From Pseudidiomarina andamanensis (lineage in GTDB: Bacteria > Pseudomonadota > Gammaproteobacteria > Enterobacterales > Alteromonadaceae), in the NCBI RefSeq assembly GCF_009734345.1, contig NZ_CP032551.1, positions 1,050,001 to 1,082,000 on the forward strand: 32,000 nt of DNA, given 5' to 3'. Position numbers and translations under genes: made by a program. The first letter of the stretch is position 1, and each line of letters starts with the position of its first letter. Positions 8,205 through 27,643 of the stretch are shown piece by piece. The notes under the pieces were generated by a model, which was not told the origin of the DNA, ran no database searches, and was given only the letters and a program-made list of their open reading frames with translations.

Positions 8205-10239
<2,035 letters not shown>

Positions 10240-18965: not shown

Positions 18966-19006
18966 GGAAAAGAAAAATCTCCGCTCACGGAGTGAGACGG
19001 AGATTT
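18966..19006 (-). terminator. Rho-independent terminator of the dipeptidase transcription unit
   Basis: Minus-strand RNA reads AAAUCUCCG-U-CUCAC-UCC-GUGAG-CGGAGAUUU (14 bp, one bulge) followed by UUCUUUUCC. Confidence 0.85.
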
Positions 19007-19071: not shown

Positions 19072-20271
19072 TTAGTGGTTGGCGGCGTAGGTTTCTACTT
19101 CGCGCCATACACGCACTAAGTTTTTATACAGAATCTTCTCGATCTCTTCTTCGCTGTAACCACGATCAAGAAGACCTTGAACTAAATTCGGATATGTTGA
19201 AACGTCTTTTAAGCCAACCGGCAATGAATCACCTACACCATCATAATCCGAGCCAATACCGATGTAATCAATACCAACAAGATTCTTCACATGGTCAATA
19301 TGGTTCAACACTTCTTCAAGTGTAGCGAACGGGAATGGGTTTTTGGCGCGAACTTCAGCGATGCGTTTTTCAGCTTCCTCGCTACCTTCGCCATATTGCT
19401 CATTAATCGCAGCAATTTGCTTACGAACGATATCGCCGTACCGGTTTGCCTGCTGAGTCACGAACGATGAACCGAAGTTGATCATGATAACGCCACCATT
19501 TTTGGCGAGGCCTTTGATCATCTCATCACTCATATTACGTTCAAAGCCTGGCGTATATTTACGTAGCGATGAATGTGATGCGATAACTGGAACTTCTGAT
19601 AACTCGACGGCTTGCCAGAACGCTTCGTCCGACACGTGTGAAATATCAATCATCACACCAACGTTGTTCATTTCTTTAACTAGTTCTTTGCCAAATGGGC
19701 TTAAACCATTCCACTGACGGCGAATATCATATGACGAGTCTGAAATGTGGTTCGACTGACTGTGCGCTAAAGTGATGTAGCGGATGCCACGATTATAGAA
19801 TTCGTGGAGATTTTTTAAGTCACCTTCAATCGGCGAGCCATTTTCCATCCCAAGGGCTATGGAAATAACACCGCGCTCTTGCTGCTGCATCACTTGATCG
19901 ACACTGTACGCCATAGCAAATTTTTGCGGCGCACGCCAAGCCAACGCTTCCATACTATCAATAAGCTGATGCGCTAACTGGTAGCTAGCACCTGGTGTTT
20001 GTTCTAGCTGCGCTGGAATATAAATCGACATAAACGGAACGTTCAAGCCGCCCTGCTTTGCGCGAGGGTAATCAAAGTCACCACGTTCTGTTGCGCGAGT
20101 GACGTCTTCCCAGTCTTTATTCAGGCGATATGGCACATCAATGTGTGTATCAATAATTAAATTCTTTTGCGCAATTTCATGCGCTTTGTCACTAGCTGTA
20201 TACTCTTGCGCTGTGGCAACAGTTGTTAGACTTAGGGCGCCAACCAAACCCAACATAAGTGGCTTATTCAC
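19072..20271 (-). CDS. secreted/periplasmic membrane dipeptidase, peptidase family M19
   Basis: 399 aa. Signal peptide MNKPLMLGLVGALSLTTVATAQE. M19 motifs IIDTHIDVPY, ITLAHSQSNHISDS, IDISHVSD, VIASHSS, IGIGSDYDG. GTG start with an AAGAGGAAG SD 7 nt upstream. Confidence 0.9.
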   Translation of the reverse strand: MNKPLMLGLVGALSLTTVATAQEYTASDKAHEIAQKNLIIDTHIDVPYRLNKDWEDVTRATERGDFDYPRAKQGGLNVPFMSIYIPAQLEQTPGASYQLAHQLIDSMEALAWRAPQKFAMAYSVDQVMQQQERGVISIALGMENGSPIEGDLKNLHEFYNRGIRYITLAHSQSNHISDSSYDIRRQWNGLSPFGKELVKEMNNVGVMIDISHVSDEAFWQAVELSEVPVIASHSSLRKYTPGFERNMSDEMIKGLAKNGGVIMINFGSSFVTQQANRYGDIVRKQIAAINEQYGEGSEEAEKRIAEVRAKNPFPFATLEEVLNHIDHVKNLVGIDYIGIGSDYDGVGDSLPVGLKDVSTYPNLVQGLLDRGYSEEEIEKILYKNLVRVWREVETYAANH

Positions 20272-20337
20272 GCAGCAACTTCCTCTTATTATAAGAATTA
20301 ACGGTGAAAATCAGCCTACCATATGTTTATGTTGCAT

Positions 20338-20454
20338 TCACTCGGATTTGTCGACGCTCATCGCAGTAGAAGCGATGACGACCGCACCAGCAACCACTGT
20401 ACCCAATACTGGTGCTGCCATCATCACGACAAGTAAACTGGACTGCATCCACAT
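20338..20454 (-). CDS. unannotated 38-aa single-pass hydrophobic peptide (MWMQSSLLVVMMAAPVLGTVVAGAVVIASTAMSVDKSE)
   Basis: Below the length cutoff of the ORF track. The ATG lies 4 nt after the TAA of the upstream 90-aa gene, and the GAGGA SD (8 nt upstream) is embedded in that gene's last codons. About 25 hydrophobic residues plus a charged DKSE tail. Confidence 0.5.
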   Translation of the reverse strand: MWMQSSLLVVMMAAPVLGTVVAGAVVIASTAMSVDKSE

Positions 20455-20458
20455 GCTG

Positions 20459-20731
20459 TTATTCCTCGTTACCAGTAATTAATTCAACGGCAACTTCAGC
20501 AACGTTGGTCAACATGCGAGATGGATTTAATGCGAGTTTTACTTCAGCAAAATATTGCATCAACTCAAGTTGGTTTTCAGATTTAACTTGTTGACGCGTA
20601 TTGCTTACTTCTTGCGAAATACTTTCTTTCAGAGACAATTCTAAATTACTGTCGGTTTGTTTTTCTTGTGCTTGAGCTGAACCGAATAAAAGAGCAGAAG
20701 CAACTACGATTGAAGTGATTGTGGTTTTCAT
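20459..20731 (-). CDS. small secreted acidic helical protein, unknown function
   Basis: 90 aa. Signal peptide MKTTITSIVVASALLFGSAQA/QE. The mature ~69 aa are Glu/Gln/Ser-rich. AGGAG SD 7 nt upstream. I recognise no family. Confidence 0.65.
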   Translation of the reverse strand: MKTTITSIVVASALLFGSAQAQEKQTDSNLELSLKESISQEVSNTRQQVKSENQLELMQYFAEVKLALNPSRMLTNVAEVAVELITGNEE

Positions 20732-20784
20732 GGGTAATCTCCTAGTTAGTGTTAATGGACTAATTATTTAGTCGCTAGGAGATA

Positions 20785-20800
20785 AGCAAAGGTTGTGCCA
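20785..20800 (-). promoter_or_regulatory. sigma54 (-24/-12) promoter
   Basis: Minus strand reads TGGCAC-AACCT-TTGC-T, against the consensus TGGCACG-N4-TTGCW. GG and GC are correctly spaced, and only the G at consensus position 7 differs. This was the only such match I could find on either strand of the window. Predicted TSS ~20774. Confidence 0.65.
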
Positions 20801-20841
20801 ACTTTTAATTTAATTACGAGAATTTTATTTTATTGTTTGAA

Positions 20842-20854
20842 TATCAACGAGTTA
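20842..20854 (+). promoter_or_regulatory. candidate IHF binding site
   Basis: TATCAACGAGTTA fits WATCAANNNNTTR exactly. It is preceded by the A/T tract AATTTTATTTTATTG and sits between the sigma54 promoter and the upstream palindrome. Confidence 0.4.
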
Positions 20855-20875
20855 CGACTAAAAACAAATTTAAGA

Positions 20876-20894
20876 ATTAACGTACCTAGTTAAT
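20876..20894. promoter_or_regulatory. palindrome ATTAAC-N7-GTTAAT, candidate enhancer (UAS) for a sigma54 activator
   Basis: Perfect 6-bp arms centred at about -110 relative to the predicted sigma54 TSS. Confidence 0.3.
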
Positions 20895-20909: not shown

Positions 20910-21932
20910 CTAACTCGCTTCAGTTGTGAAATTAGCCAATTTTTCGGCAAAAAGCGCACGTGCCGATGTGACTTCATGGTATGCAGCCTCTAAAACAGGC
21001 CGAGCTGCACTTGCTTGTGGGCCTTGCTGACTGAGAACTTGTCGCCACTTTTTAGCACCTGGCCCGCCTTGAAACAGCCCAATCATGTGTCGCAATACGT
21101 GCCAAGGTCGGCCGCCTTGCTCAACATGTCGATCAGTGTAGGCAATCATTGTTTCGATAACCGACTCGACATCCACGTGGTGATGGTATCCTAATAAGCC
21201 ATCAAACTCACTCAACAGATAGGGGTTTTGATAGGCTTCGCGGCCAATCATCACACCATCGACATGCTGAAGGTGTTCATTGATTTCGGCGACACTTTTT
21301 ATACCGCCATTAATCGATATGTGCAGATGTGGGTAACGCTCTTTCATACGATACACACGATCGTAGCGAAGTGGTGGCACGTCACGGTTTTGCTTCGGGC
21401 TCAGCCCTTTTAACCAAGCATTGCGGGCATGGAGAGTAAAATGCTGACAACCGGCATCCATGACTGGCTCCATAAACGCTTGGAGATATTCGTCACTATC
21501 GTGTTCATCAATGCCGAGTCGAGTTTTGACGGAAACAATGGTATTTGGTGCGGCTTCGCGCATTGCTTTAACACACGCCGCAACGGTTTCCGGCTCAGCC
21601 ATTAAACAAGCGCCGAAACTACCGTTTTGCACCCGATCTGACGGACAGCCAACATTAATGTTTACTTCTTGATAGCCACGCTCGGCAGCACGCACTGTGC
21701 ATTCAGCCATGGCGGCAGGATCACTACCACCAAGCTGAAGAACCACAGGTTGCTCTTCAGGATTAAACTGCAAAAAGTCCATTTTCCCGTGAATAATCGC
21801 GCCCGTCGTCACCATTTCAGTGTAAAGCACTGACTTTTGCGTTAATAACCGATGGAAGTACCGACAATGCCGATCAGTCCAATCGAGCATCGGCGCAATA
21901 GCAATCAACTTGTCGGCTTCATAATAAGTCAT
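20910..21932 (-). CDS. dusA: tRNA-dihydrouridine(20/20a) synthase DusA
   Basis: 340 aa. IAPMLDWTDRHCRYFHRLLTQKSVLYTEMVTTGAIIHGK...NVGCPSDRVQNGSFGACLM...INGGIKS...VDGVMIGREAYQNP is colinear with E. coli DusA. Confidence 0.95.
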   Translation of the reverse strand: MTYYEADKLIAIAPMLDWTDRHCRYFHRLLTQKSVLYTEMVTTGAIIHGKMDFLQFNPEEQPVVLQLGGSDPAAMAECTVRAAERGYQEVNINVGCPSDRVQNGSFGACLMAEPETVAACVKAMREAAPNTIVSVKTRLGIDEHDSDEYLQAFMEPVMDAGCQHFTLHARNAWLKGLSPKQNRDVPPLRYDRVYRMKERYPHLHISINGGIKSVAEINEHLQHVDGVMIGREAYQNPYLLSEFDGLLGYHHHVDVESVIETMIAYTDRHVEQGGRPWHVLRHMIGLFQGGPGAKKWRQVLSQQGPQASAARPVLEAAYHEVTSARALFAEKLANFTTEAS

Positions 21933-23526: not shown

Positions 23527-23595
23527 TTGTTTTCCTTTCAAGTCACTGATAGATGGCGCTTTGCGCCTGATGAAACCGATGATAAACTGCTGCTC

Positions 23596-24036
23596 ATGAA
23601 CACACAAGAAACCCAGCGCCTCGTCAACAAGGCCGAAAAACTATGTGAACAACGTGGCGCCCGCTTAACGCCGGCTCGCCGCGAAGTTTTTGAGATCCTT
23701 GCTGAACAAGAGGGTGCTATTGGTGCTTATGACCTGCTTGATAAACTCAAAGCAGCGGTACCCAATGCCAAGCCCCCCACTATTTATCGCGCCTTAGACT
23801 TCCTACAAGAGCAGGGTTTCGTTCACAAAATTACTTCTTCAAATAGCTACGTACTCTGTAGCCATTTCGACCACCAGCATCCAGTACAAATGCTCATTTG
23901 TGAGCGTTGTGGATCAGTTCAAGAAATTCAGTCAGATGGCGTTTATGATGCATTGAAAAAGCAAGCTGAGGGACAAGGTTTCTTAGTTGCTTCGCAAACC
24001 ATTGAAGCGCATGGGCTCTGCAAAGACTGCCGTTAA
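23596..24036 (+). CDS. zur: zinc uptake regulator (Fur family)
   Basis: From ATG 23596: MNTQETQRLVNKAEKLCEQRGARLTPARREVFEIL..GAIGAYDLLDKL......AKPPTIYRALDFLQEQGFVHKI.SSNSYVLC...CERCG...IEAHGLCKDC is colinear with E. coli Zur. The track start at 23527 is a TTG extension. Confidence 0.85.
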   Translation: MNTQETQRLVNKAEKLCEQRGARLTPARREVFEILAEQEGAIGAYDLLDKLKAAVPNAKPPTIYRALDFLQEQGFVHKITSSNSYVLCSHFDHQHPVQMLICERCGSVQEIQSDGVYDALKKQAEGQGFLVASQTIEAHGLCKDCR

Positions 24037-25595: not shown

Positions 25596-26543
25596 TTACT
25601 TTTTAAGAACGATATCACCACTAACTGTACGGAAGTTCATTGAACCGCTGCGCTCACCAAGTTGCAAGCTCAGGCGTTGGCCAATACCAAAAGCTGACTC
25701 TTCCGCTTGCTGCTGCGTCAAATGATTATGGATAGCACCACCAGCACTGGTTTTGGCGTCAATGTCTGCGTCAATCGAACCTTTAAACATCATATTAACT
25801 TCACCACTGACGCTTTCCACATTAATACGGCCTTCGCGAGCCATCTCTAAGCTAGCATCCACATCGCCGCTAACGCTATTCACATGAAGTGAATCGATGC
25901 GCTGTAATGTCAACTCAATGTCACCAGAAACCGCCTCAACACGCACAACGCTAGCGTTCGTTTTTACTGCCACGTCACCACTAACGCTTGAATAACTCGC
26001 GCGTGAGCTATCACTGCCATGGTCTGTCACATCACCACTAACGCTTCTCAAAGCCAATTCCCCGGCAAGTTCCTTCGCATCGATATCACCGCTAACCGAT
26101 TCCAATTGAATGTTACCAGTAAGTTTTGATGCCTTCACATCACCACTGACGGTGTTGGTGGTTACCGCAGCTTTAAAATTGGTAACTTTAAAATCAACAG
26201 ATACGCCGCGTGCTTCAACTCGCGCTGTTTCCGGTAACGTAATCGTTAATTCGTTGCCATCATTATCGTTATAGTTACCGCGCTTCGGCATTTCGACCTT
26301 AATCGTCAGCGTATCGCCATTAAGTTCAAACACAAATTTCTCTGCGTGTTTGTCCAAGCGCCCAGTCACGTGTGCCACCTTATTCGAGGTGCCTCGAATA
26401 TCTACATTGCCGCGCATTGTATCAATGACGACTCGTGCATTTGCTGGAATATCAAGCTTTTGATCGATACGCTCACCTTGAGCCTGAGCAGCAAACGATA
26501 GCGCTATCACAACGGCGCCAATCAACATGTTTAATACTTTCAT
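25596..26543 (-). CDS. secreted DUF4097 (Toastrack-type) beta-strand repeat protein
   Basis: 315 aa. Signal peptide MKVLNMLIGAVVIALSFAAQAQG. Eight copies of the (S/T/A)VSG(D/E)(V/I) motif at roughly 17-25 aa spacing, typical of the DUF4097 right-handed beta-solenoid family. Confidence 0.8.
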   Translation of the reverse strand: MKVLNMLIGAVVIALSFAAQAQGERIDQKLDIPANARVVIDTMRGNVDIRGTSNKVAHVTGRLDKHAEKFVFELNGDTLTIKVEMPKRGNYNDNDGNELTITLPETARVEARGVSVDFKVTNFKAAVTTNTVSGDVKASKLTGNIQLESVSGDIDAKELAGELALRSVSGDVTDHGSDSSRASYSSVSGDVAVKTNASVVRVEAVSGDIELTLQRIDSLHVNSVSGDVDASLEMAREGRINVESVSGEVNMMFKGSIDADIDAKTSAGGAIHNHLTQQQAEESAFGIGQRLSLQLGERSGSMNFRTVSGDIVLKK

Positions 26544-26556
26544 GGTTATACTCCTA

Positions 26557-27087
26557 TTACACCTGTTGATAGGTGCGTGGTTGTTGATACATTACTTTCA
26601 ATAAATCGAGTTCTTGTTGGTGCAGCCACTGTAAAAACTGCCACAACTCACTATTATCCGGGTCAAGACGTAACTGCTCAGTCACTTTAACTGCAGCGCT
26701 TCGCAACTGCTCAAGTTCTGATTGCAGCTCTGAAAAAGTTGGTTGCAAGCCGGCATCTTCATAGTTCGCTAGAAGTACTTGGCGCTGCTGCTGATGCTGT
26801 TGCGTCACCATCGTTAACAACTCAAGTTGTTGTCCATTGACGGACGTACTAACCGGGTTCAACGACAAGCTCAAGGTAATCCCTGCTATCACAAATATGG
26901 AAGCTGCAGCACTTGAAAACCAAAGCCAGTAGTTGTTAGGTTGACGTTTTAAAGTGACCTGACTCCGACTGATATTCGCCTCAATTCCTCGCCACAGATC
27001 ACGCGGTGGTGAGACATCACGATTCTCATCAATGGCTTTTTGAATAAGCGCATCAAGCTTTTGAGCTCGGTTATCATGCGTTGTCAT
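26557..27087 (-). CDS. putative single-pass anti-sigma factor
   Basis: 176 aa. About 50-aa cytoplasmic N-terminus, one TM segment (YWLWFSSAAASIFVIAGITLSLSL), and a Gln-rich helical periplasmic domain. Overlaps the ECF sigma gene stop by 14 nt. Called from position and topology only; there is no HxxxCxxC zinc motif. Confidence 0.55.
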   Translation of the reverse strand: MTTHDNRAQKLDALIQKAIDENRDVSPPRDLWRGIEANISRSQVTLKRQPNNYWLWFSSAAASIFVIAGITLSLSLNPVSTSVNGQQLELLTMVTQQHQQQRQVLLANYEDAGLQPTFSELQSELEQLRSAAVKVTEQLRLDPDNSELWQFLQWLHQQELDLLKVMYQQPRTYQQV

Positions 27088-27643
27088 AATTTAGCCACTC
27101 CTCTAATAATGTTCGTGCACGGTGCACCTGTGCTTTGCTGGTACCGACTGCAATACCTAATTCATCAGCAACGTCTTCATGACGCATACCTTCAATACAA
27201 TGCAATACGAAAACCCAGCGCATTTGCAACGGCAGCCTTTTTATCAACGTATCAAGTTCGCCTAAATCAGCACTATCTTCTTGCACTAACTGCTGTTCAT
27301 ATTGGTTTTGATCATCACCAATCAATTGCAGTTTGTTAAGACGTTTCGTCTGCTTACGTAACTCGGTTATGGCCACACGCGTGGCTACTGTATGCAGCCA
27401 GGTACTGAACTTGCTCTCGCCGCGGAAACGCTCGAGGTTCTTCCACAGCTGAATAAATACCTCTTGCGTCACATCCTGTGCGGCGTCGTGATCGGCAGCT
27501 AAGCGCAACACTAAACCGTAAACTCTTCGGTGATGACGCTCGTAAATTTCCCGAAACGCTTGCAAATCACCTTTTCCGGCTCGCTTTACAAGAGCGGTGT
27601 CAGGATCATCAAACTGCACTGTTGTAAGAATCTGGGCTGTCAC
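27074..27643 (-). CDS. ECF-type RNA polymerase sigma-70 family factor
   Basis: 189 aa. Region 2 (FREIYERHHRRVYGLVLRLAADHDAAQDVTQEVFIQLWKNLERFRGESKFSTWLHTVATRVAI) and region 4 (VFVLHCIEGMRHEDVADELGIAVGTSKAQVHRARTLLEEWL). GTG start with an AAGGA SD. Confidence 0.9.
   Translation of the reverse strand: MTAQILTTVQFDDPDTALVKRAGKGDLQAFREIYERHHRRVYGLVLRLAADHDAAQDVTQEVFIQLWKNLERFRGESKFSTWLHTVATRVAITELRKQTKRLNKLQLIGDDQNQYEQQLVQEDSADLGELDTLIKRLPLQMRWVFVLHCIEGMRHEDVADELGIAVGTSKAQVHRARTLLEEWLNYDNA

Follow-up and report, generated by a model that had tools for sequence, protein, structure and literature searches.

A candidate PspF/sigma54-controlled pair of very small proteins in the pspG position downstream of dusA in Pseudidiomarina andamanensis

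Introduction

What is encoded, and under whose control, directly downstream of dusA in Pseudidiomarina andamanensis, in the position that pspG occupies in Escherichia coli? Among envelope-stress systems the phage-shock response serves as a model; its known PspF targets in E. coli are only pspA-E and pspG (PMC3041696). A dusA-pspG order is also found in Salinivibrio (PMC8537503), and pspF-pspABC has been reported for Idiomarina loihiensis (PMC3041696). A search of the literature for Psp in Pseudidiomarina, or for a PspF regulon in Shewanella, found nothing. The E. coli gene, pspG, is reportedly dependent on PspF, IHF and sigma54 (Lloyd et al. 2004).

The DNA considered here, referred to as the window, is a 32-kb stretch of the P. 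andamanensis genome (GCF_009734345.1, contig NZ_CP032551.1, positions 1,050,001-1,082,000, forward strand). An earlier note on it had pointed to a sigma54-type element ahead of two small open reading frames, and had suggested either a positionally equivalent counterpart of the Psp unit or an NtrC-type nitrogen-scavenging one. The first of these suggestions is strengthened by a PspF-type motif and by a PspC-domain gene at the corresponding place in Shewanella, and on comparative sequence grounds the unit is probably PspF/sigma54-controlled and of phage-shock type with a cargo other than PspG, i.e. the Idiomarinaceae version of the slot downstream of dusA.

The locus

The gene for tRNA dihydrouridine synthase A, dusA (20910-21932, minus strand), specifies 340 aa that match Pfam Dus (1.2e-79, residues 12-311) and the NCBIfam DusA equivalog (1e-143, residues 7-325). 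The conserved domain ends at about residue 325 and the final ~15 residues are a lineage-specific tail. Genes for an M19 dipeptidase, an amidase, a Fur-family (Zur-like) regulator and dnaB are nearby, as had been noted earlier. Just as in E. coli K-12, where the order is zur..dusA-pspG in accord with the earlier note, the small-gene unit is directly downstream of dusA, co-oriented with it, and with zur near. The spacer between dusA and the first small gene, ORF1, is 178 bp. No gene for an activator is present within the 32 kb, and an Rfam scan of the window yielded no match. For comparison, 19 related Idiomarinaceae loci (designated by L numbers; DusA 95-65% identical) were used, making 20 loci with the window included.

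The sigma54 promoter

Within the spacer, and in the same orientation as ORF1, is the -24/-12 element TGGCAC-AACCT-TTGC-T (TGGCACAACCTTTGCT; 20785-20800, minus strand), with GG at -24 and GC at -12 in their fixed spacing. The earlier claim that it is the sole correctly spaced match in the 32 kb is confirmed, as TGGCAC-N5-TTGCW has one exact match (20800-20785, minus strand), with a mean of 0.09 in shuffled windows, 9 of 100 of which contained at least one. TGGCA does not vary in any of the 20 loci, and across the 19 related loci, every one of which retains the motif downstream of dusA (a check that had been proposed), no part of the spacer but the -24/-12 block is conserved, the remainder being fully diverged. 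Motif discovery restricted to this non-coding spacer found nothing conserved apart from the promoter block. The element at 20800-20785 is, by prediction from these features, a genuine sigma54 promoter, and its conservation indicates strong purifying selection across the genus.

Simple scans revealed no sigma70-like promoter in the spacer and, in this window, no dusA terminator. However, L003-5, L010 and L013 have clear dusA terminators before the block, and because a dusA terminator precedes the promoter in several relatives, the pair needs a promoter of its own. Since the usual distance from the -12 GC is 11-12 nt, transcription is predicted to start near 20774, giving a leader of about 45 nt ahead of ORF1. 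An inverted-repeat scan identified a stem-loop directly after this predicted start (GACTAA-ATAA-TTAGTC, 6-bp stem; start and stem-loop together 20758-20774, minus strand). Its fold z is -2.0 in the window, the mean over 16 Idiomarinaceae loci is -1.2, the sequence of the stem varies between species and only some Shewanella have one, making it no more than suggestive as a conserved RNA element, and it is not retained as such.

Upstream sites other than the candidate enhancer

The textbook activator-IHF-sigma54 geometry that had been suggested for the spacer lacks support, since it was based on a palindrome that is not conserved. The 6-N7-6 palindrome in question, ATTAAC/GTTAAT (20876-20894, at about -110), does exist, but it is one of six inverted repeats of equal grade (6 nt) in 229 AT-rich bases, and it is conserved in none of the relatives, being absent even from L002, the closest with a full spacer. 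It is judged a chance feature and rejected as an activator site, the candidate enhancer lying instead in dusA codons 332-337. At the IHF site proposed earlier, TATCAACGAGTTA (20842-20854, plus strand; 42-54 bp upstream of the -24 element) is a perfect match to the consensus, with P about 0.03 for a match within this spacer (the whole window has four, with 1.67 expected), but its conservation is weak, as 9 of the 14 relatives scanned have sites with one mismatch only, none of them individually significant. TATCAACGAGTTA is a possible DNA-bending site. As to NtrC, no match to its enhancer TGCACC-N5-GGTGCA, even with up to three mismatches, is present within 3 kb of the promoter, and the 14 such matches in the whole window are at chance level, leaving the nitrogen-related suggestion without a supporting NtrC-type site.

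A candidate enhancer in the coding tail of dusA

A conserved motif was found by unguided Gibbs sampling, and appeared only once the 3' end of dusA was included. In the window it is a dyad, TGGCTAATTTCACAA (20924-20938, minus strand), that lies within dusA codons L332-T337, some 130 bp upstream of the promoter, with its centre at about -157 from the predicted start, and about 45 bp further upstream than the palindrome just discussed. A dyad of the PspF form T[AG]G[TC]N-N5-C[AG]C[TC]A, sought at roughly 80-160 bp upstream of the start, occurs at 20938-20924, in coding DNA and with look-alikes elsewhere.

Cross-species matrices are informative about its identity. When the matrix from the Gibbs motif was applied to E. 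coli DNA, the best matches were the site upstream of pspG (17.5) and the upstream activating sequences (UAS) of pspA (18.1), the best unrelated positions in 14.5 kb scoring 9.9 and 12.3. These top-ranked sites are the native E. coli PspF UAS (PMC6710252 Suppl. Table 3), of which there is one at pspG and two at pspA (PMC3709507). Reciprocally, with a matrix trained on Shewanella and E. coli sites only, the dyad comes second among the window's roughly 64,000 positions, behind position 8976, which is inside an unrelated ORF. The equivalent site ranks first in L002, L012, L014, L081, L083 and L084, and scores poorly in L003-5, L006-7, L010 and L016, where a TAGCG variant is present.

As the window dyad is in coding DNA, protein constraint could account for its conservation, and chance look-alikes do occur in conserved codons (those for RGDFDY of the M19 dipeptidase at ~20067 and for SHFDH of zur at ~23858). 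Pertinent here is that the motif is non-coding in L081 and L082, whose DusA is without the tail, and that it straddles the dusA stop codon in L014 and L084. In L014 and L081 there are two copies in tandem with a 22-bp spacing, like the E. coli pspA arrangement. The window copy is among the weaker ones, in that just one of its half-sites is good (AATTTCACAAC) and a tandem partner is not clearly visible, and the enhancer-promoter distances show no clear pattern of helical phasing. Overall, the sequence comparisons make the dyad at 20938-20924 a likely enhancer and place it in the motif family to which the PspF enhancers of E. coli belong.

Parallels with E. coli pspG extend to a sigma54 core 40-50 nt ahead of a gene for a small membrane protein, an enhancer motif of that family right where dusA ends, and an IHF-like AATCAA element in the spacer; at the E. 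coli pspG promoter AATCAATAGATTA adjoins the -24 element. Differences are that the -12 element is TTGC in the window and TTGT at pspG, and that the window dyad is inside the dusA frame at about -157, compared with about -86 for pspG and beyond the E. coli range of about -86 to -122. With E. coli pspA, which has UAS I and II, IHF and sigma54 sites, what is shared is the dyad motif (TAGTGTAATTCGCTA in pspA, compared with TAGCCGATTTCGCTA in L003 or TAGTGAAAAACGCTA in L081) and, in L014 and L081, its tandem arrangement. Unlike pspA, the window has no evident second dyad, no divergent pspF and a different cargo.

The small-protein pair

As described earlier, the promoter faces two genes, one for a 90-aa protein with a signal peptide and one, coupled to it, for a transmembrane peptide of 38 aa. 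ORF1 (20459-20731, minus strand) matches an NCBI 'hypothetical protein' of P. andamanensis at 100% identity and has a positional counterpart in all the related loci. The mature part of this Sec-exported protein, ~69 aa, is acidic and helical, and the AlphaFold model has helices at 23-68 and 70-87 (pLDDT 74, pTM 0.37). Pfam and NCBIfam gave nothing above cut-off, the sub-threshold matches being to signal peptides only, and Foldseek of the model against the PDB gave no match. An exhaustive search of 1.84 billion representatives retrieved four clusters, and a search with a combined profile retrieved only hypothetical proteins of Shewanella and Idiomarinaceae.

ORF2 (20338-20454, minus strand) is a hydrophobic single-pass membrane peptide of 38 aa with an invariant APV-GT--A core. 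It has no NCBI annotation in P. andamanensis and no Pfam family, yet it is kept in every related locus, and the differences between the copies are mainly at third codon positions (794, compared with 395 and 223 at the other two). It is predicted to be translationally coupled to ORF1, with the GAGGAA codons for the C-terminal EE of ORF1 serving as its Shine-Dalgarno sequence.

Neither product has detectable similarity to PspG or to a known family, the earlier impression to this effect being matched by negative results from Pfam, NCBIfam and hhalign. Pfam found no PspG (PF09583) in ORF1 or ORF2, and none even at E = 10 for 11 ORF2 orthologues; hhalign of PspG with ORF2 profiles gave a probability of 1% or less; and PspG is the product of a single gene, a polytopic membrane protein of ~80 aa, rather than of two cistrons as here. 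PspG identity for the pair was rejected on these grounds. The cargo differs from that of the E. coli pspG locus, being made up of a helical secreted protein plus a peptide of 38 aa (hhalign probability with PspG 1%).

The Shewanella counterpart

A scan of 32 Shewanellaceae loci just after dusA, in which TTGT was allowed at -12 as in E. coli, revealed a sigma54 core in 26 and at least one UAS-like site in 27, the background of UAS-like matches being 0.16 per kb. The order in Shewanella is dusA, tandem PspF-type dyads, a sigma54 promoter, a similar protein pair and a PspC-domain gene (Pfam 2.5e-14), the three products being annotated as 'hypothetical/periplasmic protein', 'hypothetical protein' and 'PspC domain-containing protein' (e.g. 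AAN56884.1, S. oneidensis MR-1). Common to Shewanella, Parashewanella and the window are dusA, PspF-type dyads, the sigma54 core, a helical protein with a signal peptide and a transmembrane peptide. In Shewanella the two proteins are ~100 aa and ~40 aa, the latter with a central Pro-Val, and the Parashewanella ORF2 (LMMAPVMSF) is intermediate in sequence and bridges the two peptide families. The similarity is weak by alignment: hhalign of Idiomarinaceae with Shewanella gave P = 0.0047 and a probability of 7.5% for ORF1, and P = 0.07 for ORF2, and in local HMM searches the positional counterparts were the top matches but with E = 0.04-4. Shewanella differs from the window in having the PspC-domain gene as a third cistron and no M19 gene near the pair, and in having its dyads tandem and non-coding whereas the window dyad is coding.

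The downstream dipeptidase

Next after ORF2 is the gene for a periplasmic M19 dipeptidase (19072-20271, minus strand; Pfam Peptidase_M19 3.6e-99). Going downstream from the promoter, a simple scan detected no intrinsic terminator-like hairpin until 18992-18979 (minus strand), in accord with the previous statement that there is none before 18966-19006. Cotranscription of the dipeptidase gene, which had been raised as a possibility, is nevertheless doubtful. The ORF2-M19 spacer contains TGGTAGGCT (20313-20321, minus strand), an extended -10-like TGnTAnnnT and a candidate separate promoter for the dipeptidase, that is present in 20 of 20 loci and in 15 of them is exactly 19 nt past the ORF2 stop codon. 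In L081 and L082 a terminator-like hairpin intervenes between ORF2 and the M19 gene. Pairing probabilities calculated per sequence have the ribosome-binding site hidden by a stem in the M19 leader, and this stem together with the separate promoter-like element suggests decoupling from the pair. The dipeptidase gene is probably a separate unit with its own promoter, read-through into it being possible.

Alternative explanations

The sigma54 promoter could be real but served by a different activator, of NtrC-, CbrB- or AauR-type, with the M19 dipeptidase and amidase making the whole a nitrogen- or peptide-scavenging operon. Idiomarina lives on amino acids and peptides, the E. coli ddp dipeptidase operon is induced by nitrogen limitation, ORF1-ORF2-M19 is syntenic in all the Idiomarinaceae loci and no terminator separates ORF2 from the M19 gene in the window. 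This is nonetheless unlikely, given that the one upstream motif that is conserved matches the PspF enhancers, that nothing NtrC-like within three mismatches is near the promoter, that an invariant promoter-like element of its own precedes the dipeptidase gene, which in L081 and L082 also has a terminator before it, and that in Shewanella the promoter and pair are followed by a PspC-domain gene and not by a peptidase. The same strict gene order in every Idiomarinaceae locus examined, and the same scope for read-through, could alternatively mean that ORF1 and ORF2 serve the dipeptidase as accessory or anchoring partners, such as a membrane tether and a chaperone, with no general stress role whichever activator is used. 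Less probable still, this proposal has to contend with the Shewanella pair being without a nearby M19 gene and with the signs of decoupling in the M19 leader, and M19 enzymes are not known to depend on partners.

At a different level is the question of whether the block is productive at all. Non-productive sigma54 sites are reportedly widespread in E. coli (Bonocora et al. 2015), and the block could bind sigma54 holoenzyme without acting as a productive promoter, the pair being expressed by read-through from dusA, for which the simple scan found no terminator in the window, or from an unrecognised sigma70 promoter. Such a state of affairs is very improbable for a block that is ideally positioned and oriented, with about 45 nt of leader before ORF1, that is conserved genus-wide amid completely diverged spacer DNA, that is preceded by clear dusA terminators in the relatives named above, and whose arrangement recurs in Shewanella and in E. 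coli, where pspG has a proven sigma54 promoter.

Proposed mechanism and implications

Under the favoured reading, PspF control of a non-PspG cargo, PspA would keep PspF inactive as long as the inner membrane is free of stress; once stress sets in, PspF would bind to the dyad in hexameric form. Looping of the DNA, perhaps with help from IHF in the AT-rich spacer, would bring it to the closed sigma54 complex, and it would open the promoter using ATP, with transcription from near 20774. ORF1 and ORF2 would be produced jointly and, at the inner membrane and its periplasmic face, would serve as effectors or modulators under stress, replacing PspG, the downstream dipeptidase being expressed mainly from its own promoter. 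The regulatory mechanism itself is already well known. What would be new is a PspF-controlled output of marine gammaproteobacteria that occupies the pspG position but is a different one, in the form of two very small proteins. The pair is outside every described family, one member being unannotated in P. andamanensis, and would be a concrete candidate for new Psp effectors; S. oneidensis, which is genetically tractable, carries a counterpart operon.

A broader reading, entertained tentatively and at a little under even chances, is that an ancient PspF/sigma54 slot after dusA outlived its cargo, with the Alteromonadales pair adding a new arm of effectors to the phage-shock response and with the enhancer absorbed into dusA in Pseudidiomarina. 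The slot may span Enterobacterales, Vibrionales, Shewanellaceae and Idiomarinaceae, and its unannotated Alteromonadales module may consist of the secreted helical protein and the ~38-aa membrane peptide, with the PspC-domain partner in Shewanella. Regulatory DNA would then have been conserved across orders while the cargo gene was replaced, and the coding tail of the gene upstream would contain an enhancer, the same 15 bp being both a PspF site and the specification for the C-terminal tail of a tRNA-modifying enzyme.

Another type of comparison is with ZraP, CpxP and Spy, which are small helical periplasmic stress proteins, zraP being sigma54/ZraR-dependent. ORF1 is about half their size, is without the LTxxQ motif and, as mentioned, has no Pfam, NCBIfam or Foldseek PDB match; the resemblance, which is by analogy only, is in being small, secreted and all-helical, with a sigma54 promoter and a putative link to envelope stress.

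A sigma54 promoter after dusA

On the minus strand, dnaB (25481-24051) is followed by genes for a secreted amidase (23607-21985) and DusA (21932-20910; conserved domain ending near residue 325) and, past a 178-bp spacer, by ORF1 (20731-20459; 90 aa, signal peptide), ORF2 (20454-20338; 38 aa, hydrophobic) and an M19 dipeptidase gene (20271-19072), then a terminator and the S10 ribosomal operon. A Fur-family, Zur-like gene is on the plus strand (23527-24036). The order in the E. coli K-12 locus, zur(-)..dusA(+)-pspG(+), is as given in the earlier note. The main interpretation offered there, that the pspG position is taken by a non-homologous unit of Psp type, is the best-supported reading and, from sequence comparison, a reasonably probable one.

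The sole exact match in the window to TGGCAC-N5-TTGCW is TGGCACAACCTTTGCT at 20800-20785, with 0.09 expected. A genome scan seeded with DusA gave 16 Pseudidiomarina/Idiomarina loci (DusA identity 95-65%), and a further four came from looking up ORF2 homologues; every locus extending beyond dusA has the order dusA, 84-115-aa signal-peptide protein, 33-41-aa peptide, M19. Among these Idiomarinaceae loci the single alignable block of the spacer is TTGGCACAACCTTTGCAT plus ~15 bp downstream, the remainder having diverged past alignment, and within it TGGCA is without variation while the -12 element occurs also as TTGT, TTGA, TCGC, GTGC or ATGC. That single block with its invariant TGGCA, a clear dusA terminator 5' of it in several relatives, and the lack of any sigma70-like promoter in the dusA-ORF1 spacer by simple scan together argue that the predicted sigma54 promoter is real. 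The earlier observation of such a promoter is thus both confirmed and strengthened.

Its proposed accompaniments fare less well. An IHF consensus match is present (20842-20854), but such matches are not scarce here: the window has four against 1.67 expected, and the IHF-like sites of relatives have one mismatch each and are individually not significant. The 6-N7-6 palindrome (20894-20876) is also present, but its assignment as the enhancer was wrong, as it is one of six inverted repeats of equal grade in 229 AT-rich bases and is not found in L002, the closest relative having the full spacer.

A short stem-loop lies directly, or within ~10 nt, after the predicted sigma54 start in the window (20758-20773; z = -2.0, mean -1.2), at equivalent positions in L002-L016 and in some Shewanella; it was not found in the short-leader Shewanella group. 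Its stem varies by species, e.g. GACTAA/TTAGTC in the window, TTGGCA/TGCCAA in L006 and CGGC/GCCG in L009, with 9-10 bp in L018-L031, and it may be an mRNA 5'-end stabiliser.

A candidate PspF-type enhancer in the end of dusA

Unguided Gibbs sampling, run on 12 diverse loci over the 230 bp 5' of the promoter, returned a 16-mer motif lying mostly inside the last codons of dusA. When the raw matrix was applied to E. coli DNA (14.5 kb), the site right after the dusA stop, 5' of the pspG promoter, came top at 17.5 (next unrelated 9.9), as did one in the pspF-pspA spacer at 18.1 (next unrelated 12.3); a hand-curated version found in addition a second pspA site, 20 bp off. The native PspF UAS at -134 to -89, ending ...TAGTGTAATTCGCTAA, is the same pspA stretch (PMC6710252 supplement), and pspA has two UASs, pspG one (PMC3709507).

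The window's candidate dyad, TGGCTAATTTCACAA (20938-20924, minus strand), occupies dusA codons L332-T337, beyond the conserved DusA domain. In relatives L081 and L082, whose DusA has no tail, the dyad (TAGTGAAAAACGCTA / TAGCGAAAAGCGCTA) lies in non-coding DNA, equally far out (-125 from TGGCA); L014 and L081, like E. coli pspA, carry two dyads, here 22 bp apart. With an independent matrix, trained on Shewanella and E. coli sites alone, the window site ranked second of ~64,000 positions and its equivalent first in L002, L012, L014, L081, L083 and L084; the TAGCG-type variants (L003-7, L010, L016) scored poorly. That matrix also matches conserved codons in other genes, RGDFDY of M19 (~20067-20085) and SHFDH of zur (~23858), one such mimic being CGTGGTGACTTTGATTACC vs CGTGGTGAATTTGACTAC (E. 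coli pspG UAS, reverse-complemented), a warning that coding DNA yields false enhancer matches. Its best match in the window, at 8976, is inside an unrelated ORF, so chance look-alikes exist. Score alone being insufficient, the case for the putative enhancer comes from position, non-coding copies and cross-species reciprocity. An enhancer-binding protein gene was not found in the 32-kb window; pspF-pspABC is reported in Idiomarina loihiensis (PMC3041696). The rival suggestion, an NtrC-type nitrogen-scavenging unit that includes the dipeptidase, drew no support from a search for NtrC sites.

Products and counterparts in other lineages

The ORF1 product matches a Pseudidiomarina andamanensis 'hypothetical protein' at 100% identity. 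In its model (pLDDT 74) the signal helix is followed by a long helix (23-68) and a shorter one (70-87), and there is no fold match in the PDB. Neither ORF1 nor ORF2 has a Pfam, NCBIfam or PspG match, bearing out the view that they resemble neither PspG nor a known family, and in the searches made here members of the ORF1 family come only from Idiomarinaceae and Shewanellaceae. Across 12 lineages, third codon positions account for most of the differences in ORF2 (794 vs 395 and 223) and its invariant APV-GT--A core has numerous synonymous changes: by this codon pattern it is truly coding and under clear purifying selection. Within the collection queried, records of this exact sequence come from Logan assemblies only, none from NCBI, and the gene is apparently unannotated in the reference genome. 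Since its Shine-Dalgarno, 4-9 nt before the ATG, is the GAGGAA of the C-terminal Glu-Glu codons of ORF1, the two are translationally coupled. A conserved acidic ORF1 C-terminus (..NEE, ..SE, ..KE) overlaps the ORF2 Shine-Dalgarno at the junctions of all relatives as in the window (20459-20470), and part of its protein-level 'conservation' may therefore be a coupling constraint.

In Shewanellaceae, with TTGT permitted at -12, a sigma54 core is present in 26 of 32 loci, ~110-130 bp past one or two PspF-type dyads after dusA (e.g. TAGTGAATTTGACTA and TAGTGAATTTCACTA in L029; background 0.16 matches per kb). The cistrons downstream encode, in order, a helical protein of 95-115 aa with a signal peptide, a TM peptide of 34-59 aa and a protein of 66-80 aa with a PspC domain (Pfam PF04024, 2.5e-14). 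In public records the last is called 'PspC domain-containing protein' and the other two 'hypothetical' or 'periplasmic'. This three-gene operon, ~100-900 bp past dusA in L017-L045 behind PspF-type dyads in tandem and a sigma54 core whose -12 element is TTGT, is apparently undescribed so far. Homology of its first two products to the Pseudidiomarina pair is marginal (hhalign P = 0.0047 for ORF1, 0.07 for ORF2); positional counterparts are top-ranked in local HMM searches at E = 0.04-4, and the Parashewanella peptide LMMAPVMSF is between MMAAPVLGT and LLLLPVISF. Salinivibrio has pspG after dusA, as in E. coli (PMC8537503).

The M19 dipeptidase leader

Cotranscription of M19, raised earlier, is favored by the lack of a terminator between ORF2 and M19 in the window, but the spacer (20272-20337) has its own TGnTAnnnT element, in the window TGGTAGGCT (20321-20313, minus strand). 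The element is in 20/20 loci, L002-L016 and L081-L084 included, in 15 exactly 19 nt past the ORF2 stop, as in the window, and L081/L082 have a terminator-like hairpin ahead of M19. The M19 ribosome-binding site tends to pair with an upstream CUUC-type leader arm (mean P(SD paired) 0.77 vs 0.51 with the upstream part shuffled), and L081 shows covariation in this arm (GCGUCC/GGACGC). Given element, hairpin and pairing, M19 is treated as mainly a separate unit. Were TGnTAnnnT a promoter, its transcript would start within the arm and have an accessible ribosome-binding site, while an RNA extending from the sigma54 promoter would contain the arm and mask that site; element and leader could then be a separate promoter with a translational gate dependent on the transcript's promoter of origin.

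Elsewhere in the window

The top PspF-type dyad match, palindromic ATAGTTAAATTGACCAC (8976-8992; score 19.9), has a relaxed sigma54-like motif, TGGCATTGGCTTTGA (8703-8689, minus strand), 273 bp downstream of it. Both are within a reductase-like ORF (8205-9605) and may be due to chance or mark a sigma54 site inside a gene. That ORF (minus strand; Oxidored_FMN C-terminal part and Pyr_redox_2) and another at 9727-10227 (minus strand; Oxidored_FMN N-terminal part), ~120 bp apart, are apparently one 2,4-dienoyl-CoA reductase / old-yellow-enzyme-type gene (8205-10227) split in two, which may reflect a frameshift, pseudogene or assembly error.

Adjoining dnaB is a minus-strand operon (25596-27643) of an ECF sigma factor gene (27643-27074), an overlapping ORF, probably for an anti-sigma factor (27087-26557), and a gene for a DUF4097 'toastrack' protein (26543-25596). 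Toastrack domains are often tied to PspC-type envelope-stress modules.
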